From: Thermoplasmata archaeon
GTDB lineage: Archaea > Thermoplasmatota > Thermoplasmata > Lutacidiplasmatales > UBA184
Length of the DNA: 52,061 nt
Assembly: GCA_021798415.1 (NCBI GenBank)
Contig: JAJZGO010000003.1
Span: 1-52,061 of the forward strand
Direction of reading: 5' to 3'
This document shows, piece after piece, positions 1 to 38,948 of this stretch. How positions within the stretch are numbered: position 1 is the first letter of the stretch; the number at the start of each line of letters is the position of its first letter. The position numbers were made by a program, and so were the translations under genes. The notes under the pieces are model-generated. The model saw only the letters and a list, made by a program, of their open reading frames with translations, did not search any database and was not told the DNA's origin.

Positions 1-17
1 ACCCGTCGTCCTGGTGG

Positions 18-2075
18 ATGCGCGACGGGAACTCGACGGCCCTCGCGGCGGTCTGGACCGGGCTCCCTCCCGGGTGCGAGAACATCCCCCTCTGGTACCG
101 CTGGTCGGACCCGCCGGGACCCGGGGCGGGAACCCTCGCGTCGTCCGACCAGAACTCGACCGTCTTCACCGCGGCTTCCCTCGACCCCGGAACGTCGGAG
201 GTCCGTGTGGAGGCCGCGACGGTCGTGCGTTGCGGCGCCGACGAGACGGTCGTCGACGCGACCGCCGGCTCGAACGTCACGGTCGTGGCGCCTCTCGCCC
301 TCGACCGGCTCACGGTCACGCCGGACCCGGTACCCGCGGGCGCCGTGGCCAACCTCTCGGGGGTCCTGGTCGGAGGCGCTCCCCCGTACCGGCTCGAGGT
401 CGCCTGGGGTGACGGGGCGGTCTCGTTCGCGAACGTGAGCGCTACCGGCGCGTTCTCGTTGGGTCACGGATTCCCGGCCGGCGACTTCGGACCCACCGTC
501 GTGGCGACCGATGCGTCCGGTCAGCGCGCGAACGCGTCGACCGACGAACCGCTCTACTCGAGCGGGGGGCTCGCGGTCGGGATCCGCCCCTCCACGACGG
601 TCGCCGAGGTCGGAGTACCGGTCGGGTTCGCGGGCGTGGTCATCGACCCTCCGACGGCGTACGGCTCCGCATCGCTCTGCACCGGACCGGGAGGCGGCGT
701 CGCCCGCCGGCCCCCGGCGGACGCGACCGCCGAGAATTTCAGCTGCACGTTCGCGAACCCGGGGACGGCGCAGGTCGAGTTCGAGGTCGTGCCGGTCTCT
801 TCGCAGGTCCCCCCGGCCTCGGCCGAGCTCTCCGAACCGGTCGAGCCACAGCTCGGGCTCGAGGTCGTGACCCCGCCGGCGAGCGCGGAAGCGGGACGCG
901 TCGCGGGCGTGAGCGCGACCGTCACGGGCGGAGTGCCCCCGTTCGCGATCTCCTGGCAGCTCTCGGGGACGGCGAACCTCTCGTCGACCACGCTCGCCAC
1001 CGACGGGACCGTCGAACTCCCGATCCTCGCGGGCCGTCCCGGCAGCTACGTCGCGACCGTGACGGTCGTCGACGGAGTCGGCGAGGTGGCGGCGAACTCT
1101 TCCTCGACCCTCGAGGTCGCGCCGCGACTCTTCGCGTCGGCGGCGGTGGGTCGTACCGTCACGCCGAACGGAACGGCGGTCGAGGTGGCGGGCACGGTCA
1201 CCGCGGGCGACGGTCCGTACCTCTGGGCGGTCGTTCCCTCGCTCGTCCCGGCGTTCGGGAGCCCGCAGAACGGCTCGCTCGTCACCGCCGCCGGCTTCGA
1301 CTGGAACGGGACGTTCTCCGAGGAGGGGAACGTATCGGTGACGGTCGCGGTCGTGGACCAGGACGGGGCGGGCTGGTGGGCCGCCCTCCCCACGCCGCTC
1401 GTTTCCCCCCTCCGCGTGGACGGCGGCCTGAACGCGAGCCGCGACGGGAACTCGACACTCCTTCGGCTCGGACTCACGATCGAGGGCGGCCTCCCGCCGT
1501 TCGTCGTCGAGGCGAACGCGACGCGGGGCGTCGAGGGGAACCTCTCGGCCCCCTCGGACGGGTCGTTCTCCTACTCGTGGGTCGTCAACGGCACCGGCGC
1601 GTTCGGCCTGACGGTCGCCGTCCTCGATCGGCTGGGGGCCCGGGCGACGGTGAACCTGAGCGCTTCGACGCCCGCGTCCTCGCCTCCACCGTCCTCGCCG
1701 CCGCCGTCGGCCCCGCCGCCCGGGTCCGCGCCCCCTCTTCCCTCGACCGCCCCCCCGGTGCTCGACGTCACGGTCGGCACGACGCTCGCGGTGGCCCTCG
1801 CGCTGGGAGCGGCGGGCGTGTGGACCCGTTGGCGGCGCCGGGACCGTTCCCCCCAGGGACCCGCGCCCGAGCCCGACGCGGTCGCGGTGCTGCGGGGGAT
1901 CATCGAGCCGGCCGACGGCGTCGACCGGTCGACCGTCGAGCTCCTCGCCGAGGAGGAGGGGGTCCCGCTCGCCCGGGCGCGCTCCACGCTCGACCGCCTC
2001 GTCGCCGAGGGGACGGTCCGCTCCGAGACCGGGGCGGACGGGGAGGAGGTGCTCGCGTGGTCGACGCGCGCGTGA
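18..2075 (+). CDS. Large glycosylated surface protein (PKD/Ig-like beta repeats, Pro/Ser linker, TM helix, C-terminal winged-helix-like domain); probably 5'-truncated by the window edge
   Basis: Frame is open from position 3. Val/Thr/Gly/Ala-rich beta-strand repeats; 19 of 21 Asn lie in N-x-S/T sequons; PPPSSPPPSAPPP linker; TM segment VTVGTTLAVALALGAAGVW followed by RWRRR; helical tail VDRSTVELLAEEEGVPLARARSTLDRLVAEGTVRSE. Stop overlaps the next start (GTGA). Confidence 0.75.
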   Translation: MRDGNSTALAAVWTGLPPGCENIPLWYRWSDPPGPGAGTLASSDQNSTVFTAASLDPGTSEVRVEAATVVRCGADETVVDATAGSNVTVVAPLALDRLTVTPDPVPAGAVANLSGVLVGGAPPYRLEVAWGDGAVSFANVSATGAFSLGHGFPAGDFGPTVVATDASGQRANASTDEPLYSSGGLAVGIRPSTTVAEVGVPVGFAGVVIDPPTAYGSASLCTGPGGGVARRPPADATAENFSCTFANPGTAQVEFEVVPVSSQVPPASAELSEPVEPQLGLEVVTPPASAEAGRVAGVSATVTGGVPPFAISWQLSGTANLSSTTLATDGTVELPILAGRPGSYVATVTVVDGVGEVAANSSSTLEVAPRLFASAAVGRTVTPNGTAVEVAGTVTAGDGPYLWAVVPSLVPAFGSPQNGSLVTAAGFDWNGTFSEEGNVSVTVAVVDQDGAGWWAALPTPLVSPLRVDGGLNASRDGNSTLLRLGLTIEGGLPPFVVEANATRGVEGNLSAPSDGSFSYSWVVNGTGAFGLTVAVLDRLGARATVNLSASTPASSPPPSSPPPSAPPPGSAPPLPSTAPPVLDVTVGTTLAVALALGAAGVWTRWRRRDRSPQGPAPEPDAVAVLRGIIEPADGVDRSTVELLAEEEGVPLARARSTLDRLVAEGTVRSETGADGEEVLAWSTRA

Positions 2076-2467
2076 CCCGCTCCTTTCGGAGGCGGCGCAC
2101 CCCCGCCGGCCTCGGGGCCGCGCTGCTCGTCGCCCTCCTCGTGGCCCTCGCGCTCCTTCCGGCCTTTGCCGCGGCGAAACCGTCCGCGAACACGGCCCCC
2201 CCACCGTCGGGCTCGGCGGCCTCTCCCGCGGTCGGGAACTTCACCGCCGCGGTCAATCGGCTGGTCGAGCTCGTGGGCCTCGCCGGGAGCGGACTCCTCG
2301 CGCTCGTCTGGGCCCGCGTCGCCCTGAGCTGGTTCTCGAACGACATCACGAAGAAGGTCCAGGCCAAGGACCGGGCGAGGGACGCGCTGGTCGGCACCCT
2401 CCTCTTCACCGCGGCGATCACGGGCCTGTTCTGGGGCCTCGCGCACTGGGTCCTGACGGGCGTGTAG
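2072..2467 (+). CDS. VirB2/TrbC-like T4SS pilin (signal peptide plus two hydrophobic helices)
   Basis: GTG at 2072 overlaps the upstream TGA. Signal-like LLVALLVALALLPAFAAA; two hydrophobic helices joined by the basic loop NDITKKVQAKDRARDALVG; 131 aa; lies upstream of VirB6-like and VirB4-like genes. Confidence 0.65.
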   Translation: MTRSFRRRRTPAGLGAALLVALLVALALLPAFAAAKPSANTAPPPSGSAASPAVGNFTAAVNRLVELVGLAGSGLLALVWARVALSWFSNDITKKVQAKDRARDALVGTLLFTAAITGLFWGLAHWVLTGV

Positions 2468-2481
2468 GAGCGTACGGCGGG

Positions 2482-3618
2482 ATGCTCGGCCTCAGCCTCG
2501 GCGACCTCATCCGCGCGATCCTGTTCCTCTTCTTTGCGAACCTGACCGCGCTCGTCGCGGCGGTGACGGGGCCGACGTACGACCACCTCCTCGTCCCCGA
2601 GCTCGGGACGGGGGCGCTCTACCCATCGCTCGCCGCGGGCGCTTCGGACCCGACGAACTTCCTCGCCTCGGCCGCCCGGTTCTCGACCTTCACGATCGCG
2701 AACGTGGTCGACCCGGCCATCACCCTGGTCGCCCTCGGGGTCGCGGTCTCCTACCTCGCCAAACCGTTGGTCGCCCGCTGGGCGGCCACGCTCGACGGGC
2801 TCCTTCCGCGCCTCGTCCTCGCGGTCGTCGCCGCGAACTTCACGGTGCCGATCGCGGGGGCGATCCTCGGCCTCGGGGGCGCCCTCTATCCGGTCTTCAC
2901 CGGCTGGGACGGCGGGGCCTGGCAGCAGTGGGTCCACTTGGCCGGGTGGGGGGAGTACAGCTTCTCCTGGGACAACGGGGTGGTCGCGTTCGTCCTCGCG
3001 ATCGTGCAGTTCGCCGTCGTCTTCGCGCTCGTGCTCGCGGTCGGGGTCCGGGACGCCGTCCTCGCCGTCCTCCTCGTCCTTTTGCCGCTCGTCAGCCTCC
3101 TATGGCCGATCCGCCCGCTCGCACCGCTCGCGCGGCGTGCGTGGCTCCTCTTCGTGGAGCTCGTCTTCCTTCCCTGCGTCCTCGTCGTCCCGCTCGAGCT
3201 CGCGGTCGGCAGCCCGAACCCGGTGATGCTCGTCGCGTTCCTCGGCACCGCCGTCGCCTCCCCCTACTTCCTCTCCCTCGCCGGCACCCAGCTCGTCGCG
3301 TTCGGCTTCCCCGGCAGCGGCAGCACGATCCACCCCGGCGTGCAGCGAGGCTGGGGGGCCGCGTCGTCCGCTGCGGTCGGGCCCGCGAAGCCGGCGGCGG
3401 CGAGCGCCGCTCGGTCGAGCCCGACCATCGGGCGGGCGTTCGCCGGGGCGACCCGGGCGGCGGGGAGCGCGGCGGTGCCCGTCGCGGCGCCCCTCGCGGC
3501 CGTCGAGCTCGTCGGCCACGGGGCCCTCCACCTCGTGCGGCACCTGTCGCACCGGGCGGGCGGGTCTGGAGCGCCTCCCGGCCGCTTCGACCCGGGCCCC
3601 CGCGGAGGGGCGAAATGA
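2482..3618 (+). CDS. VirB6/TrbL/CedA-like polytopic membrane protein
   Basis: 378 aa with 6-7 hydrophobic segments; pattern VRDAVLAVLLVLLPLVSLLWP...ARRAWLLFVELVFLP resembles VirB6-like channel subunits; Ala/Gly-rich cytoplasmic tail; operon context. Confidence 0.6.
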   Translation: MLGLSLGDLIRAILFLFFANLTALVAAVTGPTYDHLLVPELGTGALYPSLAAGASDPTNFLASAARFSTFTIANVVDPAITLVALGVAVSYLAKPLVARWAATLDGLLPRLVLAVVAANFTVPIAGAILGLGGALYPVFTGWDGGAWQQWVHLAGWGEYSFSWDNGVVAFVLAIVQFAVVFALVLAVGVRDAVLAVLLVLLPLVSLLWPIRPLAPLARRAWLLFVELVFLPCVLVVPLELAVGSPNPVMLVAFLGTAVASPYFLSLAGTQLVAFGFPGSGSTIHPGVQRGWGAASSAAVGPAKPAAASAARSSPTIGRAFAGATRAAGSAAVPVAAPLAAVELVGHGALHLVRHLSHRAGGSGAPPGRFDPGPRGGAK

Positions 3619-3619
3619 G

Positions 3620-4393
3620 ATGCCGACCGAGGCACCCCGGGTGGCGTTCCCCGAACGGACGGACCGCCGCCTGCGCCTCGGGCCGTTCCCCTCGGCCCGC
3701 GACGCGCTCAAGTTCCTCGCGTACGCCGCCGTCGGGGCGGTCCTCGCCCCGGCGCTCGGCCCGGGCGTCGCGCTGCCCCTGGTCGCCGCCGGCTTCGGAC
3801 TCGCCGTGTGGCGTCCGGACGGCCAGGCGGTCGACGAGCGGGCGCTCTCGTTCGCGCGGTGGAGGTTCCGGTCCGTCCGTCGGGAGGCCGTCGTGAGCGA
3901 CGGCCCCCTCTCCCCTCTATTGCGGAACGGCTTCTTCCGCGTCGGCCCGTCACGCTTCGCGATCGTCCTCCGATCGGGGGGCACGCCGGTCGCGTACCTT
4001 CCCCCGGGCGACCTCGCCCATCGGTTCGAGCTGTACCGGGAGCTCCTTCGCGCGACCGAGGGCCCCGTCGCCCTCTACGTGACGTCGGTCCCGCTCCGCG
4101 CGACACCGTTCGTTCCGGTGCGATCGGATTCGACCGGACCCGACCGGGAGGCCCGCGCGGGGTACGGAGAGCTCGTGGAGCTCCTGTGCCGCCGGCGCTC
4201 GGGCCGGAGGGTCTACCTCGCGGTCGCCGCCTCCGTCACCGGTACCGAAGCGGTCGTTTCCCTCGAAGCGGAGGCGGCCCGCCTCATCGACCGCCTCGCC
4301 GCCTTCGGGCTGCGGGCGGTCCGCCTCAAGGACCGCGAGCTCGCCGACGCCGGCCGACGGTTCGGTTGGCCGATCCCGCCCGGAGGCCCATGA
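3620..4393 (+). CDS. PrgI/VirB3-like membrane protein with a C-terminal soluble domain
   Basis: N-terminus DRRLRLGPFPSARDALKFLAY, two TM helices, then WRPDGQAVDERALSFARW (PrgI-like layout), then about 160 aa of alpha/beta domain; upstream of VirB4-like ATPase. Confidence 0.55.
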   Translation: MPTEAPRVAFPERTDRRLRLGPFPSARDALKFLAYAAVGAVLAPALGPGVALPLVAAGFGLAVWRPDGQAVDERALSFARWRFRSVRREAVVSDGPLSPLLRNGFFRVGPSRFAIVLRSGGTPVAYLPPGDLAHRFELYRELLRATEGPVALYVTSVPLRATPFVPVRSDSTGPDREARAGYGELVELLCRRRSGRRVYLAVAASVTGTEAVVSLEAEAARLIDRLAAFGLRAVRLKDRELADAGRRFGWPIPPGGP

Positions 4394-4764
4394 CCGCGAC
4401 GGAGCCACCGGGCCCTCCGGCCGAGTTCGAGGCGTTCGGTGCTGCGGTCGGGAGCGCGGTCGTCGCGGGCGGGCTCTCGATCGTCGCACCGTTCCTGAGC
4501 GCCCTCACCGCCGCGCTCGCGGCCCTCGCGGTCGCCGGATGGTTCTCCCGCCTGCACGAGAGCGGGTCCGCGCGGCGGGAGGTCGTCCGGTCCGACCGGC
4601 TGGCCGCCGCCGCCCTCGTCGGCGCCGCGGTCGTCGTCTTCCTCGTCCCGGTTCCGGAGCTCGAGAACCTCAAGGCGCTCCTCCTCGGCCTCTCGTTCGT
4701 CCCGTTGTGGCTCGTCGAGCGACGCGGCCCGGGGACACCGCGGCCGGTCGGGAGGGTCGGATGA
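4390..4764 (+). CDS. Small membrane protein (about 4 TM), T4SS-like operon
   Basis: ATGA overlaps at both ends (4390-4393 and 4761-4764); 124 aa, mostly hydrophobic. Confidence 0.7.
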   Translation: MTATEPPGPPAEFEAFGAAVGSAVVAGGLSIVAPFLSALTAALAALAVAGWFSRLHESGSARREVVRSDRLAAAALVGAAVVVFLVPVPELENLKALLLGLSFVPLWLVERRGPGTPRPVGRVG

Positions 4765-6425
4765 ACCCGGCCGCCCGGACCCGGACGAAGGTCGAGGGGG
4801 CGACCTGGGAGCGCGTCGGTCGACACTACCGCGCCCCGCTCCTCGTCCGCCAGTTCCCCACCGAGGTGCCGTTCGGATTCCTCGGTCGGGTCCTGCCCGC
4901 GACCGAGCCGGCCGACCTCGTGCTCGAGGCCCACCGGATCCCGCCGGCGCGGGCCCTCGCTCTTCTCGAGGCGGCCCGGGCGGTCGCGGCCGCGGAGCTC
5001 TCGGGCGGAGGGGCGAACGGCGACACGGCGGAGCTCGAGGCCGAGCAGGAGAGCGCGGAAGAGCTCGGCAGCGCCATCGCCCGGAGGGCGCAGGAGCTCT
5101 GGAAGGTCGGTCTCTGCCTGGTGGCCCGGGGTCCGTCGCGCCCCCGCGTCGAGGCCGCGCGGACCCGGCTCGTCGAGCGGCTCGCGACGCTCGGGTTCCG
5201 GACTCGCGTGCCCCGGTACGAGGTCGCGTCGGCGCTCGCGCCGGCCGACTTCGGGGTCACGAACGGCCGGCCGGGAGGGTACTGGCAGACGTTGCCGAGC
5301 GACGGGCTCGCCGCCCTCTTCCCGTTCGGGGACGAGAGCGTTCTCGAGCCGGCGGGGGTCCTGGTGGGTCTCGCGCTCGCCGACGCGAGCCCGGTCTTCC
5401 TCGACCGGTGGTCGCACTCGAGCCATTCGTGGGGGATCTTCGGCTCGACCGGTGCCGGCAAGTCGTTCGCCGCGGCGCTGATCGCGTTGCGGACGCGGTG
5501 GCTACGCCCCGAGGTCGACCTGATCGTCCTCGACCCGCTCGGGGAGTACGGATCGCTCGTCCGCGCCCTCGGCGGCTCGGTCGTTCGGCTCGCCGACGGC
5601 GAGCGCGGCCGGCTGAACCCGCTCGACCCCGTGACGACGGGCGGGGACCGGCGGGAGAAGGCCGCGCGCGTCGGCGCGATGCTGCGAGCGCTCTTTCCGA
5701 GCCTTCGCGACGAAGAGGCCGCCGCGCTCGACACGGCCGTCTCCCGGCTCTACGACCGTGGTCCCGAGGTCCCGACGTTCGACGATCTGATGGCGAGCGT
5801 CACCCTCGGCCGGGAGGCGAGCGACCGGCTCGCGACCCTTCTCGAAGTGTTCCGCTCCGGGTCGCTCTCGGGCGCCAACGGCCCGACGACCCTCCGCCTC
5901 GACGCGGGGCCGGTCTCGGTCGACTTTCGGGGCGTCGCCGAGGACCAGCTCCCGTTCCATCTCGCGTACGTGCTCGACTGGGCGTACGGGAGGCTGCGCG
6001 AGCGGCCCGGACCGAAGCTCCTCCTGGTCGACGAGGCGCACCTCCTCGTACGACACGCGGCGACCGCCGGGTTCCTCGACCGCGTCGTCCGCCACATCCG
6101 CCACTACAACGCCGGCGTGCTCGTCCTGAGCCAGAACCCGGACGACTTCCTCGAGCACGCGAGCGGACGATCGACCCTGCGCAACCTCTACGCGACCGCG
6201 CTCCTCCGCCTTCGGGAGGTGTCGCCCGGTACCCGAGAGTTCTTCGGACTCACCGACGCCGAGGCGGAGTGGCTTCCGAAGGCCCGTCTGCCGCGTGAGG
6301 CGGGGTATTCGGAATCTCTCTGGCGGATCGGGGACCTCCACCTTCCGCTGGCGCTCGTTGCCTCGACGCCCGAGTACGAGTTCCTCAACCGGGCGCTCGG
6401 CCCGGAGCCCCCGGCGCCGCCGTGA
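4761..6425 (+). CDS. VirB4-like (CedB/TedB/HerA-FtsK superfamily) ATPase
   Basis: SD GGAGG before ATG 4761; Walker A GSTGAGKS, IVLDPLGEY, LNPLD, Walker B LLLVDEAH, RHYNAGVLVLSQNPDDF; 554 aa. Confidence 0.85.
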   Translation: MNPAARTRTKVEGATWERVGRHYRAPLLVRQFPTEVPFGFLGRVLPATEPADLVLEAHRIPPARALALLEAARAVAAAELSGGGANGDTAELEAEQESAEELGSAIARRAQELWKVGLCLVARGPSRPRVEAARTRLVERLATLGFRTRVPRYEVASALAPADFGVTNGRPGGYWQTLPSDGLAALFPFGDESVLEPAGVLVGLALADASPVFLDRWSHSSHSWGIFGSTGAGKSFAAALIALRTRWLRPEVDLIVLDPLGEYGSLVRALGGSVVRLADGERGRLNPLDPVTTGGDRREKAARVGAMLRALFPSLRDEEAAALDTAVSRLYDRGPEVPTFDDLMASVTLGREASDRLATLLEVFRSGSLSGANGPTTLRLDAGPVSVDFRGVAEDQLPFHLAYVLDWAYGRLRERPGPKLLLVDEAHLLVRHAATAGFLDRVVRHIRHYNAGVLVLSQNPDDFLEHASGRSTLRNLYATALLRLREVSPGTREFFGLTDAEAEWLPKARLPREAGYSESLWRIGDLHLPLALVASTPEYEFLNRALGPEPPAPP

Positions 6426-6479
6426 GCGGCTGCCCGTCGAAAGCGAGGTTTATAGGCCGGTACTGGGCCGGGTCCGGCC

Positions 6480-7010
6480 GTGGGCGGCGAGGCGACGATC
6501 GAAGGGCCCGCCCGTCGTCGGACGAGCTGGAGCCTGAAGGCGATCGTCGAGGATGTCGCGGGCCGCCCGATCGGCGAGCTCCAGGACCCGGCCCGTCCGG
6601 TCCATCCGTACCTCGAAGGCAAGATCGCGAAGCTTCCTCCTCGCCCCGCAATCGCGCCCGCGGATGGCGACGAGTACGACCCGATCGACCACGTCTACCC
6701 GCCGCTCGTCGGGCCGACCGGACGTCGCTACCACGGCCCCGACCACGAGCATCACCAGGAGACGATCGAGCGCCACCGCCTCCTCACGGACGCGGCCGGC
6801 AACCCGCTACGCCGACCCGGACCGTCGCACCGGCCCGAGCGGCTCTACCTGCACTACCTCCTCCTCCACCTCGACCGGCTCGGCGACACGGGGCTCCGCT
6901 ACCTCCGGGCGGCGATCGACGAGGAGCTCAACCACCGGGAGACCCCGCCCCCGACCCCGGAGCCGACGGCGCTGGCGGCCAAAGCCCCCGAGCCCGAGCC
7001 CTCCGGGTGA
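6480..7010 (+). CDS. Hypothetical His-rich protein
   Basis: TTTATA at 6449-6454, about 25 nt before GTG; 176 aa with a globular-looking core; 3' end overlaps the convergent methyltransferase by 83 nt. Confidence 0.6.
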   Translation: MGGEATIEGPARRRTSWSLKAIVEDVAGRPIGELQDPARPVHPYLEGKIAKLPPRPAIAPADGDEYDPIDHVYPPLVGPTGRRYHGPDHEHHQETIERHRLLTDAAGNPLRRPGPSHRPERLYLHYLLLHLDRLGDTGLRYLRAAIDEELNHRETPPPTPEPTALAAKAPEPEPSG

Positions 7011-7773
7011 GCTCGTCATAGACGACCGGGTCCCACTCGACGCCGACCGCGTTCCGTCCCGAGGCGACCGCGGCCCACAGCGTCGTCCCGGTCCCCGCGA
7101 ACGGGTCGAGCACGGTGTCGCCGACGACGGAGAACATCCGCACCAAGCGCTCCGCGATCGCCGACGGGAACGCGCCCGTCCGCCGCTCCCGCGGGCCCTG
7201 GGGAGCCCCCCGGACGTCGCTCCAGACCTGGCTGAACCACGCGTCGCGCTCCGCCCGGGCGAGGCGGCTCGCGAGCCGGCGGGGGTCGTGCGGCGCGAAC
7301 CGGCGCAGGCCTCCCTTGCGGAAGAGGAGGAGGAACTCGCAGTCGAGGGTGACGTAGGCGTTCGGCGGCAGGAACCCCGACCCGAGGAAGGCGTTCGGCC
7401 GGTTCGTCGGCTTCTTCCAGAGGACGTACGGGAGCGGCGTGAACCCCGCCCGGGCCGCGCTCTCGAGCACCGCGGCGTGGTTCGGCCAGAGCCGAAAGCC
7501 CCCCGCGTCCGAGCGCAGGGCGTCGCCGACGTTCACCGCGAGGATCCCGCCGGCCACGAGCGTGCGATGACACTCCCGCCACGCCTCTCCGAGGACCGAG
7601 TGCATCTGCGCGTACTCGGTCGCGCCGAGCGCGGCGAAGAGGCCGTCCCACTGCGGGATCATCGGGTACGGCGGCGAAGTGACGACGAGGTGGACCGACC
7701 CGGCGGCGAGCGCCGCGACGTCCCGAGCGTCACCACGGAGGAGCCGGACCGTCGGGGGCGGGGAGGGGGACAC
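6928..7773 (-). CDS. Site-specific DNA methyltransferase, N4/N6 beta class (orphan; resembles CTAG m4C Zim/M.MthZI-type enzymes)
   Basis: Catalytic motif TSPPY precedes SAM motif DPFAGTGTT; LWKKPTN...GSGFLPPNAYVTL segment; GTG 7773 lies 23 nt from a TATTAA box. Specificity is inferred from remembered family resemblance. Confidence 0.85.
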   Translation of the reverse strand: MSPSPPPTVRLLRGDARDVAALAAGSVHLVVTSPPYPMIPQWDGLFAALGATEYAQMHSVLGEAWRECHRTLVAGGILAVNVGDALRSDAGGFRLWPNHAAVLESAARAGFTPLPYVLWKKPTNRPNAFLGSGFLPPNAYVTLDCEFLLLFRKGGLRRFAPHDPRRLASRLARAERDAWFSQVWSDVRGAPQGPRERRTGAFPSAIAERLVRMFSVVGDTVLDPFAGTGTTLWAAVASGRNAVGVEWDPVVYDELTRRARARGLWPPAPSAPGSGAGSPGG

Positions 7774-7824: not shown

Positions 7825-9129
7825 ATGCGCCTCGAGCGTCCGGTCCTCCAGGTGGCCCTCGACTTCGAGAACCTCTCCCGGGCGATGCTCGCCGCGCGGG
7901 AGGCGGTCGACGGCGGCGCCGACTGGGTCGAGGCCGGGACCCCGCTCATCAAGAGCGAGGGACTGAACGCTGTCCGCGAGCTCAAGAAGGCGTTCCCCGA
8001 CCACCGCGTCGTCGCCGACATGAAGGTGATGGACACCGGCGCGTTCGAGGTCGAGATCGCCGCGAAGTCGGGCGCCGACCTCGTCACGGTCCTCGGCGCC
8101 GCCGACGACGACACGATCGCGGAGGCGGTGCGCGGTGGCGAGCTCTACGGCGCCGAGGTCGTCGTCGACCTGCTCGGCGTCCCGGACCCCGTCGCGCGGG
8201 CAAAGCGGGCCGCCGAGCTCGGTGCCGGCGCCGTCTGCTTCCACATCGGCATCGACATGCAGATGCAGGGGAAGACGCCGTTCGCGGTGCTGGGCGAGCT
8301 CGCGAAGGCGTCGCCGATCCCGGTCGCGGTCGCGGGCGGCCTCAACAGCGAGACGGTCGCCGAAGCGGTCCGGGCGGGCGCCCAGATCCTGATCGTCGGC
8401 GGCGCGATCACGAAGAGCCCCCGGATGGCCGAGGCGACGCGACGGATCCGGGAGGCGATCGCGACCCAGACGGAGGTCGCGACCGAGCTCTTCCGCCGCT
8501 ACTCGGGCGACGAGGTGCGCACGGCGTTCCTCAAGGTCTCGAGCCCGAACGTGACCGACGCGATGCAACGCCAGGGGGCGATGCACGGGATCGTCCCCCG
8601 CCTGCGCGACCGATCGGTGCGGGTCGCCGGACCCGCGGTCACGGTCGTGACGCGGGACGGCGACTGGGCGAAGCCCGTCGAAGCGATCGACCGGGCGGGG
8701 CCGGGCGACGTGATCGTCATCGACGTCGGAGGGGGTCCCACGGCCGTCTGGGGGGAGCTCGCGAGCTGGAGCGCGCACGGCCGCAAGGTCGCCGCGGTCG
8801 TCATCGACGGCGCGATCCGCGACCTCGACGCGATACTCGACCTCGGCTTCCCCGCGTTCAGCCGGTCGGTGAGCTCCGACGCCGGCGAGCCGAAGGGCCA
8901 CGGCGAGATCGGGGTCGAGGTGACGGTCGGGGGCCAGCGCGTTCGTCCGGGCGATTGGATCGTCGGCGACGCGAGCGGGCTCGTGGTCGTGCCCCGGGAG
9001 CGGGCGCAGGAGGTCGCGAACCGGGCGCTCGACGTCCTCGAGCACGAGAACCGTGTCCGCGAGGAGATCCAGCGGGGCTCCACCCTGAGCGCCGTCCAGA
9101 AGCTCGAACGCTGGGAGCGGGTCGGCTAG
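7825..9129 (+). CDS. hxlA: 3-hexulose-6-phosphate synthase (OMPDC-like barrel) fused to an RraA/HMG-aldolase-like domain
   Basis: LQVALD, WVEAGTPLIKSEG, VVADMKVMDTG, AVAGGL, IVGGAIT; C-terminal SPNVTDAM, GDWAKPVEAI, AVWGELA, VIDGAIRD, PGDWIVGDASGLVVVP. Confidence 0.9.
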   Translation: MRLERPVLQVALDFENLSRAMLAAREAVDGGADWVEAGTPLIKSEGLNAVRELKKAFPDHRVVADMKVMDTGAFEVEIAAKSGADLVTVLGAADDDTIAEAVRGGELYGAEVVVDLLGVPDPVARAKRAAELGAGAVCFHIGIDMQMQGKTPFAVLGELAKASPIPVAVAGGLNSETVAEAVRAGAQILIVGGAITKSPRMAEATRRIREAIATQTEVATELFRRYSGDEVRTAFLKVSSPNVTDAMQRQGAMHGIVPRLRDRSVRVAGPAVTVVTRDGDWAKPVEAIDRAGPGDVIVIDVGGGPTAVWGELASWSAHGRKVAAVVIDGAIRDLDAILDLGFPAFSRSVSSDAGEPKGHGEIGVEVTVGGQRVRPGDWIVGDASGLVVVPRERAQEVANRALDVLEHENRVREEIQRGSTLSAVQKLERWERVG

Positions 9130-15300: not shown

Positions 15301-15401
15301 GCTCCCGTAGTCTAGTCCGGTCAAGGATAGAGGGCCTTCGAAACGTCCGTCGAGGACGTTGAGGAAACCCTCCAACGCGGGTTCGAATCCCGCCGGGAGC
15401 A
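15301..15401 (+). tRNA. tRNA-Glu(UUC) with a 26-nt canonical intron (15341-15366, position 37/38); C at position 33
   Basis: Acceptor GCTCCCG/CGGGAGC, discriminator A, T arm GCGGG-TTCGAAT-CCCGC, anticodon stem GAGGG/CCCTC. Perfect BHB: helix CCTT/GAGG, bulges CGA and AAA, intron stem AACGTCC/GGACGTT. Spliced loop CCUUCGA. CCA is not encoded. Confidence 0.88.
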
Positions 15402-16845: not shown

Positions 16846-18339
16846 CTACACGACGAGGAGGAGGTGGTACGGTGCCAGGTTGTCCCCTTCCGAAAGCACC
16901 AGCGATGGCGTTCGGGGGTCGAGCCCTTGAACGAAGATCCGCCCTTCGCGGGAGAGCAGTCGAAGGCGCGTGCGCGCCATCGACCGGAGCGACTGGGTGA
17001 GCGGATCGTCCTCGGCCCCGACCCAGATCGTGTGGACGGGGGACTGGTGAAGGTAGGTGAGCGCCATGCCCGGGAGCGTGTCGGCGTTGTAGGTGCCCGG
17101 CACCAGCGAATTGATGGACTTCAAGCCCGAGATCCAAACGAGCGCGAGGTTCGGAGTCTCCGGGTTCGCGTTCTCGCTCAAGAACCTCGCGGCCTCGGGG
17201 GTTCGGGGATTGTAGCCGTCCACGTTCCCGGACGGGAGCGGGAGCATCGCGGCGGCGAGGTCTTCCGATTCGTCGCGGGCCAGCATGCCGAGGATCCGCA
17301 CCTGACGGAGGAACGCTTCCTTTGGGACGCGTTCCTTGTAGAGGTCCCACACGTCGACCGGATGGATCCCGGGCGGGGGCACGAGAAAGATGCGGCCCCC
17401 CCGTTGGAACACGTGGCTCTGGATCGGATTCAGCAGCAGGTTCACGGCGGCCAGGGGAACCTCGGCATCGTGTTCGATGAGCGTCAGTTTGCGGACGGGA
17501 AGCCATCCGAAGAACGACGCGTAGTCGGCCGAGCCTGGCCAGATCTGGCCCGGCGAGCGACCGGGCTCCGGGTCGACGCGGCCGAAGGAGGGGATCGCGT
17601 TGGTCTGCAGCGGCGTGATGCACCGGAATCGGCCCCCTTCGAGCGAGAAGGGATACGACGGATGCGTGGTCCGCGTCCCCCGCAGCTTGTCGATGCGCAG
17701 CCAGCGCTCGGTCCGGTCGTTTCGGGTCTCCCGCTCCATCGTCACCACCCCGTTGACGAGATACTCGAGCTGGCCGGCTTCGCGGTGCTCCACGACGAAC
17801 ACGAGGAAGACCGGCCCCTCGGCCATCTGAGCGAGCGCGATCCGCTCGATCTCCTCGCGCGAGGATAGACCGTCGTCGGCCCGCTCCTCGCGCCCGACAT
17901 GCCGTTCGACGAGCGCATCCCACGAGTCGAGCACGATCAGGGTTCGCGTCGCGGGAGAGGTCTGGCTCCAGGCCTCCAGAACTTCGGGAGGCAACAGGAG
18001 CGCGCGGAGACTTCGGCTCCGGTCGTCGGTGGCGATCAGCGCTCGGGAGGCTCCCAGCGCTTGAGCGGCCGAGCGGAGGTCGTGCTCCGTGGCGGTCGGT
18101 TCCACCACCGACACGGGCCCGGACTTCTCCACGTTGCGAAGGTAGGGAAAGTCGAGGTCGAGATCGGCCCGACGCACCCGGCTCGAAACGTAGATCCGCC
18201 GACCGGGGAACGCTTGGAGGAGCGAGAGCGCCAGCATCGTCTTCCCCGTCCCGGGAGCCCCTCGCACCAGAAGCGCCTGGGGAACCGGGCGATTCAGGAA
18301 GTGAACCAACTCGGCCGGAAGGTCGAGAGTCCCTCCCAT
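16846..18339 (-). CDS. GvpD-like / KaiC-RAD55 family P-loop ATPase (active N-terminal domain plus degenerate second RecA-like domain)
   Basis: LLVRGAPGTGKTMLA, LIVLDSWD, LEYLVNGVVTM, WLRIDKLRG, YPFSLEGGRF; CTTAAA box upstream; 497 aa. Confidence 0.8.
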   Translation of the reverse strand: MGGTLDLPAELVHFLNRPVPQALLVRGAPGTGKTMLALSLLQAFPGRRIYVSSRVRRADLDLDFPYLRNVEKSGPVSVVEPTATEHDLRSAAQALGASRALIATDDRSRSLRALLLPPEVLEAWSQTSPATRTLIVLDSWDALVERHVGREERADDGLSSREEIERIALAQMAEGPVFLVFVVEHREAGQLEYLVNGVVTMERETRNDRTERWLRIDKLRGTRTTHPSYPFSLEGGRFRCITPLQTNAIPSFGRVDPEPGRSPGQIWPGSADYASFFGWLPVRKLTLIEHDAEVPLAAVNLLLNPIQSHVFQRGGRIFLVPPPGIHPVDVWDLYKERVPKEAFLRQVRILGMLARDESEDLAAAMLPLPSGNVDGYNPRTPEAARFLSENANPETPNLALVWISGLKSINSLVPGTYNADTLPGMALTYLHQSPVHTIWVGAEDDPLTQSLRSMARTRLRLLSREGRIFVQGLDPRTPSLVLSEGDNLAPYHLLLVV

Positions 18340-19336
18340 GAACCCTCGCCGGCACGGGTATGCCGGCCCGGGCGGTTTAAGCTTTTCGAGGGAAGGCTCC
18401 GCGACTCCTCGAATCGCTCGGCGCGGGACCGCAGCGGGGGCAGAGCGGGCTCGGCCTGCCGGGGGCCCCTGCGGCCTTCCACCTCGCCGGTTTCGTCGCG
18501 GGGAGCGATGCTCGCCCGCAAGGTCATCGACCCCGACCTCCGGCCCGACGGGGGTTACTCTCCGAAACTGCACCGCAAGACCCCGAACCCCGCCCGGGAT
18601 ACCGCTGGTTTCCGCCGGTCACGCCGCAGGAGGTCCACAACGCCGGGCGTCGTGGCGACGACCGCGCACGCTGCCTTCACCCGCGCGCGCGTCTCGCAAA
18701 CCCCACGTGGTGTGACCCCGTCGTCCTCCCCCCGGACCGGGGCCGCCCACCCGTGACCCCGGACGCGACGAAGCTCCCCGTCGAGGCAGCGACCTCCTCT
18801 GCGCCCTCGCCCCCCCCGGCGCCCAGAGCGCCGGCGGTCACGGCGAACGGTCGGATCGGGCGAGCGCCGGAGGCGATCGTTCGCGTCGTGCGCGCGCAGC
18901 GGAGTACCTGACCGAGATCACGACGCCGGCCCGCGGAGGTCGCCGGGACGCCCGTCCGTGCCCGCTCGCGGATTGGGGGTCGTGCCCAGGGGGTGTCAAC
19001 CGGAGCCGCGGGACGACGGCTTGAGAAGGAGCTCCCGGCGCTCTCCTTCCCCCGCTCCTCCGCCGAGCCGGTAGAGCGAACCGATCGAACAACCCCCCAC
19101 ACGTTGAGGAAGAGTTCGGCGCCTCGTGGTGAGCCCTCCGACGCCCTCACTACGTCGCACCCCCAGTCTGCAGCACCGGAGCGCTCCCGCGGGGAGCCCC
19201 GACCCGGCGGTTCGTGCCACCGGCGACATGATTGAAGAGGAGGAAGTCGAGGCGGCGGGTCCGAGGACGGTCCGGCGTTACCGGACGCGAAAGGGCCAAG
19301 CCATGCCCTCCTCTTCGGTCGGGACCTCGACCCACC

Positions 19337-37046: not shown

Positions 37047-38948
37047 ATGGACCCGAAGTGGCGCAACGCAATCGTCGTCGGTATCGTCGTGGTCGTCGTG
37101 GTTGCCGGGCTCGGGCTCTACCTGACCCGCCCCCAGAGCTCCTCGAAGAGCTGCGGGGTCGCGCTCAAGTCGACGAACCCCATCCTCATCGATCAGGCCG
37201 AGATCCCCGACTCGCTCGATCCGGCCGTGACGTTCTCGACCCCCGGCTGGGCCGCCGTACAGCAGGTCTACCAGGGTCTCGTGAACTACAACGGGTCGAG
37301 CTACACGACCTTCTCGGGCGTCCTCGCCCACAACTGGACGGTCTCTCCGAACGGCTACAGCTGGACGTTCCACCTGCGCCCGGGGGTCCACTTCTCGAAC
37401 GGGGACCCGTTCAACGCCTACGTGATGTGGTACAGCCTCTACCGGAGCCTCTTGCTCGTCCAGGGGCCGCAGTTCATCCTGGAGCAGAACTTCTTCTCGA
37501 CCAACTTTAGCGCCTCGAACCCGCTCACGTACTACTCGGACGTGAACTACTCCAACGCCGCGAACGCGACCCTCCTGAACGACCTCAACACGTGGAACTT
37601 CGACACCCCCACCTCGGCCGAGATCGCCCTGATGGGCACAGCGAACCAGTCGTTCCAGGTGCTCAACAACCTCACGATCGAGCTCAACCTGGGCTACGGG
37701 TACCTCGGGACCAGCTACAGCTACCTGCTCGCGTCGATCTCCGCGCCGAACTCCTACGCGGTCGACCCGGTCTGGGTCGACCAGCACGGGGGCATCTCGT
37801 TCGGGCAGCCGAACTCGTACATGTCCGTCAACACCCTCGGGACGGGCCAATACGTCCTCGAGAACTACAACGGCCTCGCGGGCGGCGGATACACGCTCGC
37901 CCCGAACCCGAACTACTGGGGAACGACGGCGGCCGCGAGCGACCCGACGAACCCGATGATCCAGCCCGCGCTCAACTCGGTCGAGATCATCTTCCAGGAC
38001 CAGCAGGCCGTCACGATCAACAACCTCAAGAGCGGTGCGGTTGCCGAGGCCTCGTTCGCCTACGTCGGGCCCTCGACCGTGAGCCAGCTCCAGGGCAACC
38101 CGTGCGTCACGGTCCAGGCGCTCCCGACGGTCTACGGCTCGACGAGCGGTTCCTGGTGGATCTACCTCGACCAGAACCAGTTCCCGTTCACCAACCTCTC
38201 CGTCCGCGAGGCGATCGCGCACGCGATCAACTACACGCAGATCATCCAGCAGGCGTTCGGGGGGTACGCGAGCCAGTGGGTGGGCCCGGTCCCCCCTTCG
38301 TACCCGTACTACAACCCGCAGGGACTCTCGCCGTACGCGTACAACCTCCCGCTCGCGCGCCAGGAGATCGCCAACTCCCCCTGCGCGAACGGCGCGTGCA
38401 AGTCGCTCGACTTCAAGTACGCCTACATCAACACGGGAGGAACCGACTGGTCCGATACCGCCCAGTTCCTGGCGGCGGACCTCGCGCAGATCAACCTCAC
38501 CATCACGCCGACCGCCATCAGCCTCGACCAGCTCTACCAGGAGCAGACGATCGACCCGACGACCGGGGTCTGCACGACGCTCGAGAGCACGAACGGCGGG
38601 CCGTTCTACATGGGCCAGGAGTTCTACACGTCCGACTACATCTCGCCGGACGACTGGACGCAGAACGACGCGATCAGCTACGGGAGCGCGAACCTGTGCA
38701 TGTCGCAGTTCGCGAGCGCGACGGTCGACAACCTCACCCTCGCGGCCGCGGCGAGCTCGAACGCGACGTTCCTGAACTCGAGCTACTCGACCATGACGAA
38801 CATCATGTACAACAACTACACCGACATCTGGCTCGTCGTCCCGACGTCGTTCGCGGTCTACTCCACGTACCTCCACGGGTTCCTCGAGAACCCGATGGCG
38901 AGTGCCGAGCCGTACTCGCTCCTGTTCAACACGCAGTCGGTCACCTGA
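37047..38948 (+). CDS. Family-5 (Opp/Dpp-type) ABC substrate-binding protein, N-terminally anchored, sequon-rich
   Basis: SLDPA, VYQGLV, LAHNWTVS, WTFHLRPGVHFSNGDPF, GTGQY, VREAIAHAIN. Confidence 0.9.
   Translation: MDPKWRNAIVVGIVVVVVVAGLGLYLTRPQSSSKSCGVALKSTNPILIDQAEIPDSLDPAVTFSTPGWAAVQQVYQGLVNYNGSSYTTFSGVLAHNWTVSPNGYSWTFHLRPGVHFSNGDPFNAYVMWYSLYRSLLLVQGPQFILEQNFFSTNFSASNPLTYYSDVNYSNAANATLLNDLNTWNFDTPTSAEIALMGTANQSFQVLNNLTIELNLGYGYLGTSYSYLLASISAPNSYAVDPVWVDQHGGISFGQPNSYMSVNTLGTGQYVLENYNGLAGGGYTLAPNPNYWGTTAAASDPTNPMIQPALNSVEIIFQDQQAVTINNLKSGAVAEASFAYVGPSTVSQLQGNPCVTVQALPTVYGSTSGSWWIYLDQNQFPFTNLSVREAIAHAINYTQIIQQAFGGYASQWVGPVPPSYPYYNPQGLSPYAYNLPLARQEIANSPCANGACKSLDFKYAYINTGGTDWSDTAQFLAADLAQINLTITPTAISLDQLYQEQTIDPTTGVCTTLESTNGGPFYMGQEFYTSDYISPDDWTQNDAISYGSANLCMSQFASATVDNLTLAAAASSNATFLNSSYSTMTNIMYNNYTDIWLVVPTSFAVYSTYLHGFLENPMASAEPYSLLFNTQSVT

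Follow-up and report, generated by a model that had tools for sequence, protein, structure and literature searches.

What is a compact row of conjugation-type genes doing among the housekeeping genes of an archaeal chromosome? The question is raised by the left end of a 52,061-nucleotide stretch from a Thermoplasmata archaeon (GenBank assembly GCA_021798415.1, contig JAJZGO010000003.1; the whole stretch is called the window here), where six co-oriented genes (3-6425), all on the plus strand, overlap or nearly abut one another. An initial annotation had tentatively read them as a fixed, domesticated module resembling a type IV secretion system (T4SS), and our analysis supports this reading as regards both structure and evolutionary status. 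By sequence comparison, the module consists of seven genes, g1 to g7, all on the plus strand and reaching to position 7010, with a fixed place between fibrillarin and HPS in a high-GC soil and peat clade of Thermoplasmata (TMEG / Lutacidiplasmatales-like). It is very likely a functional domesticated T4SS derivative. The fuller explanation, namely that the locus stems by domestication from an archaeal-type (MPF_FATA-like) T4SS or conjugation apparatus, is inherited vertically and has DNA exchange as its leading candidate function, is one that we hold with moderate confidence. No description of a T4SS-like system in Thermoplasmata was found in the literature searched.

Chromosomal context and distribution

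Contigs that extend past the window, including one of 80 kb (in which g4 is identical), one of 245 kb (97% ATPase identity) and one of 1.8 Mb, carry the genes in the order DUF885 (minus strand), RidA, fibrillarin, g1-g7, a methyltransferase (MTase, minus strand), HPS, truA and pst. The initial annotation had considered that a relaxase, a coupling protein and an integrase immediately upstream would mark an ordinary integrative and conjugative element (ICE). None of them lies there in the longer contigs, where the genes upstream of the module are instead fibrillarin, RidA, DUF885, an ABC transporter and GTP cyclohydrolase II. We detected no relaxase, integrase or repeat boundary in the module flanks of these contigs. 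Likewise, no VirD4/TraG-type coupling protein (T4CP) turned up in the 10 kb flanking the module to the left and right in eight long contigs, or among the large open reading frames (ORFs) of the window, the rest of the genomes not having been searched. The absence of relaxase, coupling protein and integrase from the window, as first annotated, also held among the large ORFs that we scanned outside the module, which encode transporters or metabolic enzymes.

The order fibrillarin, g1-g7, MTase, HPS is kept in 15 GTDB species genomes with ATPase identities of 52-97%, all of them labelled Thermoplasmata and one of them Ca. Lutacidiplasmatales, an order that the high G+C content fits. In all, about 100 related loci have the same site and the same order. 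By using a pilin-based scan of JGI metagenomes, we retrieved 186 relatives and examined 80 loci, each gene being counted where the flank was long enough. Fibrillarin was found in 35/35 of these loci, g3 in 49/49, g4 in 44/45, g6 in 36/37, g7 in 32/33, the MTase in 28/28 and HPS in 24/24. Hence neither the patchy presence among relatives nor the break in synteny with the MTase-HPS block that the initial annotation had thought worth looking for was encountered, in the species genomes or in the metagenome loci whose flanks allowed the count. A scan of viral contigs with narrow peptide patterns found nothing.

These data bear on whether the row could be an ordinary ICE or plasmid remnant that sits beside housekeeping genes by chance. 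Its nearest relatives outside the clade do belong to plasmids or other mobile elements, namely haloarchaeal plasmids (26-28% identity) and the loci L027, L031 and L112, all with a T4CP and two of them with an integrase. However, the identical site and gene order in about 100 loci spanning 52-97% ATPase identity refute a chance placement, and the flanks lack integrase, T4CP, relaxase and repeat boundaries as described above. The module is also compositionally at home, since the G+C content of window positions 1-7010 (72-76%, with 0.87-0.95 at third codon positions) is near that of the next 5 kb and only a few points above the window average. Moreover, the components are conserved as much as truA and more than pstS. 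We consider such a remnant highly improbable.

In a sister lineage (L029/L030) with 40% ATPase identity, homologues of every gene of the module occur, among them the g1-type transmembrane (TM) helix and tail (E 7e-20) and, downstream of the system, g7 (E 2e-18). There the system sits between tRNA synthetase and glycosyltransferase genes, without MTase, HPS or T4CP. Since this lineage keeps g1-g7 without the MTase, we take the module to be g1-g7 and the MTase to be a mere neighbour. Separately, a MNT/HEPN (NTP_transf_2 / HepT-like) toxin-antitoxin pair stands between g7 and the MTase in one sub-lineage (L007 and L008, 12364-13172), the sole interruption of synteny seen.

The VirB4-type ATPase and the genes g4 and g5

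The ATPase gene g6 (4761-6425, plus strand, 554 aa) starts at 4761, the longest-ORF start at 4539 not being the true one. Its Walker A (GSTGAGKS, residue 228) and Walker B (LLLVDE, residue 420) motifs are kept in nearly all loci, and its homologues form more than 500 clusters at 90% identity, the best 120 being 67-94% identical. The best NCBIfam matches were CD1110 VirB4 (1.3e-36) and Mycoplasma ICE VirB4 (7e-30), while HerA reached only 2e-4, and the sole PDB sequence match was the VirB4 C-terminal domain 4AG5 (1.6e-16). On these matches g6 is a VirB4 ATPase and not a HerA, the grouping that the initial annotation had kept in view as an objection. The CD1110 VirB4 score falls below the equivalog cutoff, so that g6 is not a member of the CD1110 subfamily.

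However, g6 is not a whole VirB4. Its residues 8-542 align to 301-836 of the 856-aa homologue P0132, leaving it without the first ~300 aa of PrgI-VirB4 fusions (~200 of unfused VirB4). The profile of g4 (3620-4393, plus strand, 257 aa) matches residues 1 to ~260 of long VirB4 homologues (P0215, 9e-14; P0146, 3e-11; P0132, 7e-10, hmm 1-242), which are PrgI-VirB4 fusions by Pfam, the PrgI match passing the gathering score for P0215 and P0138. Because g4 matches the N-terminus of such fusions, we read it as the PrgI/VirB3-like TM hairpin followed by an alpha/beta domain that is the extreme N-terminal part of VirB4, and VirB4 itself as split, with g5 between its halves. The direct PrgI match of g4 is weak (E 0.06-0.18). 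In its AlphaFold2 (AF2) model (pLDDT 78) a helical hairpin precedes an alpha/beta domain; a Foldseek search with this model returned TrwK/VirB4 7o42 at probability 0.90 and a non-significant E of 0.06, amid ferredoxin-like noise, and the g4 profile found nothing relevant among PDB sequences. Together, the sequence data argue that g4 and g6 make up a split VirB3-VirB4 motor, with weak structural support from the model.

Between the two halves, g5 (4390-4764, plus strand, 124 aa) encodes a small membrane protein with four hydrophobic segments. It holds the same position in all loci at 37-51% identity, and its four segments align across lineages, including L029 and L026, the latter with the same split VirB4 arrangement. 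The mobile-element locus L112 has a 138-aa counterpart in the corresponding place. For g5, Pfam and NCBIfam returned nothing or sub-threshold hits only, with no family match.

A VirB4 distributed over two genes could also be a sign of decay, the whole row then being the non-functional relic of an ancient integration. In support of this, the ATPase frame is interrupted in two loci (L020, 10001-11640; L021, 9995-11709). Against it, first, the split is kept throughout the clade and recurs in the sister lineage (40% identity) as well as in a relative on a mobile element. Second, all seven ORFs are open in almost all loci. Third, the ATPase identity of 52-97%, the mature pilin identity of 67-92% and the intact Walker motifs point to purifying selection. 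Furthermore, the two interrupted copies come from metagenome-assembled genomes ("MFD" assemblies) whose assembly method presumably may introduce indels, so that the breaks may be sequence errors and not pseudogenes. A relic is thus hardly credible, and a working T4SS derivative remains our reading of the locus.

The pilin, the polytopic protein and the surface protein

The product of g2 (2072-2467, plus strand, 131 aa) consists of a variable signal peptide and linker (22-40% identity) and a 78-aa mature hairpin of the form TM-basic loop-TM, which opens with an invariant N-F-S/T sequon. Among loci with ATPase identities of 52-76%, this hairpin is conserved at 67-92% identity, and it still reaches 58% in the lineage with the 40%-identical ATPase. 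Direct Pfam matches of g2 were sub-threshold only, and its profile found no pilin or anything else relevant among PDB sequences. By profile-profile comparison (hhalign), g2 aligned with a 177-aa protein of L112 at probabilities of 98.4-98.6 (E 7e-15 to 6e-16), in the same region in which that protein exceeds the Pfam T4SS_pilin gathering score (31.3 vs 26.6 bits). These alignments place g2 in the T4SS_pilin family, as a VirB2-like pilin. A comparison of g2 with g3, prompted by the resemblance of CedA1 to the CedA N-terminus, yielded only a 21-column match (E 0.058).

The third gene, g3 (2482-3618, plus strand, 378 aa), encodes a polytopic membrane protein with a Gly/Ala-rich C-terminal tail, at the position of VirB6/TrbL. 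By hhalign, g3 matched a 425-aa polytopic protein of L112 (probability 97.4, E 1e-11) and a 429-aa TrbL_3-labelled protein of L027 (P 3.5e-5, score 43.5); for the latter, 100 block shuffles scored 16.2 +/- 2.6 with a maximum of 22.3 (z ~10). A precomputed PF19590 (TrbL_3) label is attached to 16 of 120 g3 homologues. Our own hmmscan with Pfam never returned TrbL_3, even for a protein listed with a strong match, for which we suspect a difference in library version, and we treat the label as secondary evidence. Otherwise, Pfam and NCBIfam scans of g3 gave nothing or sub-threshold hits, its profile found nothing relevant among PDB sequences, and its AF2 model was poor (pLDDT 63) and had no Foldseek match. 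We conclude from the profile comparisons that g3 is a homologue of the polytopic proteins at the VirB6/TrbL position in two mobile-element clusters, and probably a member of VirB6. The initial annotation had allowed that the membrane proteins might prove unrelated to VirB2 and VirB6; as seen here, g2 and g3 are tied to proteins of mobile-element T4SS clusters that are labelled T4SS_pilin and TrbL_3, respectively.

Two independent assemblies, GCA_027448145.1 and ERZ27237400 (contig ends of L001 and L002), both break at ~3434, inside the Gly/Ala-rich 3' part of g3. The shared break suggests a repeat or a strain-variable stretch that hampers assembly.

The first gene, g1 (3-2075, plus strand), is truncated at its 5' end by the window edge. 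The initial annotation let it begin at position 18, an ATG that is internal, since the reading frame runs on without a stop as far as the window's first base. The complete protein, as encoded in near-identical contigs (L009, 5054-7315; L024, 6195-8456), has 753 aa, and its gene starts there 33 nt past fibrillarin and is preceded by an ATATA element. The protein is made up of a signal/anchor sequence, an ectodomain resembling immunoglobulin (Ig) and PKD domains, a Pro-rich stalk, one TM helix and a cytoplasmic winged-helix-like tail of ~75 aa. Nineteen of its 21 Asn residues, all in the ectodomain, lie in N-x-S/T sequons; shuffled sequences had 3.4 +/- 1.7, and 19 was reached in 0/2000 shuffles. 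On this sequence evidence g1 is a heavily N-glycosylated Ig-like surface protein. Its matches were weak PKD/Big hits in Pfam and PamR Ig-like repeats in NCBIfam. We rejected a place for g1 in the Pam system, because the PamR match reflects generic Ig-like repeats and the Pam pilus is an unrelated chaperone-usher-like system.

The ectodomain of g1 evolves fast (26-46% identity across loci), whereas the cytoplasmic tail is conserved. In L021 (7101-7409), g1 is apparently cut down to ~100 aa, chiefly the conserved tail, and in L012 recognisable similarity is confined to the tail. It is this part of g1, not the ectodomain, that is constrained.

Operon layout and the seventh gene

The junctions of the first six genes bear out the tight packing originally described (GTGA/ATGA overlaps or gaps of at most 14 nt): g1 and g2 overlap by GTGA, g2 and g3 are 14 nt apart, g3 and g4 1 nt, and g4/g5 and g5/g6 overlap by ATGA. 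The surface protein, pilin-like, polytopic, four-TM and VirB4-like proteins listed in the initial annotation all stand, and its PrgI-like protein is refined to PrgI plus the N-terminal part of VirB4.

The end of the module at 6425 does not stand, since g7 (6480-7010, plus strand, 176 aa) is co-inherited with it. Located 54 nt after g6, g7 follows that gene in all loci (42-93% identity) and encodes a soluble protein with the invariant motif RPER(I/L)YLHYLLLH(M/L)DRL; Pfam, NCBIfam and PDB gave no matches. With its homologue in the sister system, where MTase and HPS are lacking, the comparisons place g7 within the module. Based on their conservation, g5 and g7 are accessory proteins of the system.

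The 54-nt spacer contains a conserved archaeal promoter element (6440-6454, plus strand), a BRE-like AAAG (B recognition element) followed by the second box in the arrangement AAAG-N5-GGTTTATA, ~26-31 nt before the GTG start codon, with TTTATA at 6449-6454. Nearly all of the 22 aligned sequences (21 loci and the window) have GGTTTAT or GCTTAT at an equal distance from the g7 start, and L017 has GTTTAAG. Because the conserved promoter lies so close to the start codon, g7 is probably a separate, leaderless transcription unit.

Mobile-element relatives and origin of the module

Where does such a module come from? One relative is L112, in which an Ig-like protein with a TM helix and a cytoplasmic, helix-turn-helix-like tail, a T4SS_pilin protein, homologues of g3 and g4, a small membrane protein and a short VirB4 follow one another in the order of the module, and are then followed by an integrase and a T4CP. 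L027/L028 carry an integrase, a pilin (with TrbC and T4SS_pilin above the gathering score), a TrbL_3-labelled protein, a PrgI-VirB4 fusion and a T4CP, and L031 a short VirB4 and a T4CP. Unlike the module, these clusters have a VirD4/TraG-type T4CP, an integrase (in L027 and L112) and variable contexts. Their ATPases are ~30% identical to that of the module and fall outside the chromosomal clade: in a neighbour-joining tree of the relatives found here, which takes in neither CedB, CedD nor TedB, the chromosomal ATPases form one clade in 100/100 bootstraps, separate from the mobile-element sequences. Among plasmid VirB4s, the haloarchaeal ones come closest; around the nearest of them (Haladaptatus plasmid, L025), no neighbouring gene product resembled g2, g3 or g4.

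Since L112 shares the layout with its split VirB4 and its surface protein, this layout predates domestication. The initial annotation had listed components beyond the core of the Ced system; they are indeed present, but the adhesin and the four-TM protein are not additions made after domestication. From these comparisons, domestication is best described as chromosomal fixation together with loss of the T4CP and the integrase, and a clear evolutionary series becomes visible, which begins with a mobile-element cluster in the gene order of the module and ends with an operon fixed in the chromosome.

L112 also encodes three proteins of 326-406 aa (2908-6126), each with a T4SS_pilin-like domain at its C-terminal end that scores below threshold (E 2e-4 to 0.035). 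They may be minor pilins with large N-terminal domains.

Comparison with known systems and proposed function

With VirB4 and VirB3 (g6 and g4), a channel protein at the VirB6 position (g3) and a VirB2-type pilin (g2), the module is predicted to follow the plan of a minimal monoderm-type T4SS. Archaeal precedents for a T4CP-less chromosomal set of this kind are Ced and Ted, both of them domesticated VirB2/VirB6/VirB4 machines, DNA import having been shown experimentally for Ced and inferred for Ted (PMC9905601, PMC11868833). Ted (TedA/TedB/TedC) is chromosomal and lineage-wide in Thermoproteales and is built from VirB2-like (pilin), VirB6-like (channel) and VirB4-like (ATPase) components without a relaxase; its pilin carries a cleavable signal sequence at the N-terminus (PMC9905601), a feature that g2 apparently shares. 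Compared with Ted as described, the module has a split VirB4 with a PrgI/VirB3-like hairpin on its first half, adds the glycosylated Ig-like protein with its winged-helix tail, the four-TM protein and g7, and has no ParA, Rad50 or HerA genes nearby. The hosts also differ, being soil and peat Thermoplasmata on one side and hyperthermophilic Thermoproteota on the other.

Ced (CedA, CedA1, CedA2, CedB, plus CedD/CedE) imports chromosomal DNA in Sulfolobales, without T4CP or relaxase, and the N-terminal domain of VirB4 is divided between its CedB and CedD, which correspond to different portions of it (PMC11868833), so that VirB4 function is spread over two polypeptides as in the module. However, the authors describe archaeal systems as lacking VirB3 homologues, whereas the module has a PrgI/VirB3-like hairpin, and the Ced genes are dispersed, UV-induced and Ups-pili-dependent, whereas the module is one compact operon (PMC11868833). 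Judged on the NCBIfam CedD model, g6 shows no sign of Ced orthology: the match is at the level of the P-loop only (1.2e-10, 40.8 bits against a cutoff of 600), compared with 1e-36 for conjugative VirB4 families.

A third point of comparison is the chromosomal T4SS of Patescibacteria, which also combines a conserved VirB4, PrgI/VirB3, VirB6 and a T4SS_pilin/VirB2-like pilin without a relaxase and shows MPF_FATA affinity (PMC12102498); the pilins belong to the same Pfam family, PF18895. It differs in its bacterial host, its epibiotic link and its accessory set (TrsD, VirB8-like and others), and neither VirB3-VirB4 fusions nor splits are reported there (PMC12102498).

By analogy with Ced and Ted, we consider DNA the leading candidate substrate and same-species DNA exchange the most likely function, with a probability that comes close to even. 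In such a machine, g4 would anchor the g6 hexamer in the membrane beside the g3 channel, and ATP hydrolysis would pull the signal-peptide-processed, glycosylated g2 out of the membrane to form a conjugative-type pilus or conduit. The fast-evolving ectodomain of g1 would provide contact with partner cells and their recognition, and DNA would move between cells of the same species by import, export or both.

Several observations weigh against this proposal. The module contains no DNA-processing gene, be it nuclease, helicase, ParA or the HerA/Rad50 found near some Ted loci. Its sole candidate DNA-binding element is the winged-helix tail of g1, which is assigned from weak matches. The Patescibacteria T4SS, derived from MPF_FATA, is linked to epibiotic growth and not to demonstrated DNA exchange (PMC12102498). 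The link between g3 and VirB6 runs through transitive profile matches and a precomputed Pfam label that our scan did not reproduce, beside a poor AF2 model. Finally, the loci were retrieved by homology, so that genomes of the clade without the module would escape notice.

The same machine could therefore serve without transporting DNA, as an adhesive or contact pilus, for instance for attachment in soil or peat, or in the secretion or uptake of proteins or other molecules. The lack of T4CP, relaxase and DNA-processing genes in or near the module fits such a role, as do a first gene that encodes a large, fast-evolving, glycosylated Ig-like protein and the precedent of a conserved chromosomal VirB4/PrgI/VirB6/pilin set tied to epibiosis in Patescibacteria. 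However, both characterised archaeal domesticated T4SS derivatives have been assigned to DNA transfer, and they too lack T4CP and relaxase. In addition, a free-living, heterotrophic way of life and genomes of ~2 Mb are described for these Thermoplasmata, which makes an epibiotic role unlikely, and a VirB4 with a VirB6 channel exceeds the needs of a purely adhesive filament. We thus rank DNA exchange first and adhesion or another secretion role second, the latter being the less likely candidate. With DNA exchange as the preferred function, the module joins Ced and Ted as a candidate for the third system of DNA exchange between archaeal cells.

A more far-reaching proposal would make the module the third, independent archaeal domestication of conjugation machinery and the first outside Thermoproteota, a lineage-wide organelle by which abundant uncultured Thermoplasmata of soil and peat exchange chromosomal DNA and in which the g1 tail, perhaps with g7, replaces the T4CP as the receptor on the DNA side and the split motor is an obligatory design, not an accident. 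Taken as a whole, we regard this proposal as rather doubtful. If the module does work like Ced and Ted, the strategy would extend from hyperthermophilic Thermoproteota to soil and peat Thermoplasmatota, and the module would offer a concrete genetic entry point to gene flow and homologous recombination in a major, as yet uncultured lineage of soil archaea. The module also amounts to a natural experiment on what a T4SS needs once coupling protein and relaxase are gone. Its nearly invariant sequon-bearing pilin and its split VirB3-VirB4 would make good structural targets.

Neighbouring genes and other features of the window

The housekeeping flank reported on the right of the module was found again, with an N6/N4 MTase on the minus strand, an OMPdecase(HPS)-RraA fusion, truA and pstSCAB-phoU. 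The orphan N6/N4 DNA MTase (6928-7662, minus strand) converges on g7, the 3' ends of the two genes overlapping by ~83 nt. The OMPdecase(HPS)-RraA-like fusion (7825-9129) is the best-conserved gene of the neighbourhood, with 78-98% identity across all loci.

Farther to the right, a 101-nt tRNA (15301-15401) was found by Rfam (49 bits) and missed by ARAGORN, and it is probably an intron-containing archaeal tRNA, which characterises the genome as that of an archaeon. A gene on the minus strand at 16846-18573 encodes a KaiC/GvpD-type P-loop ATPase of 575 aa that is unrelated to the T4SS module. Finally, the G+C content dips to 0.64-0.66 at 37047-38948, where a gene for a SBP_bac_5 solute-binding protein with low G+C at codon position 1 (0.51) is located, with no mobile-element genes seen in this stretch.

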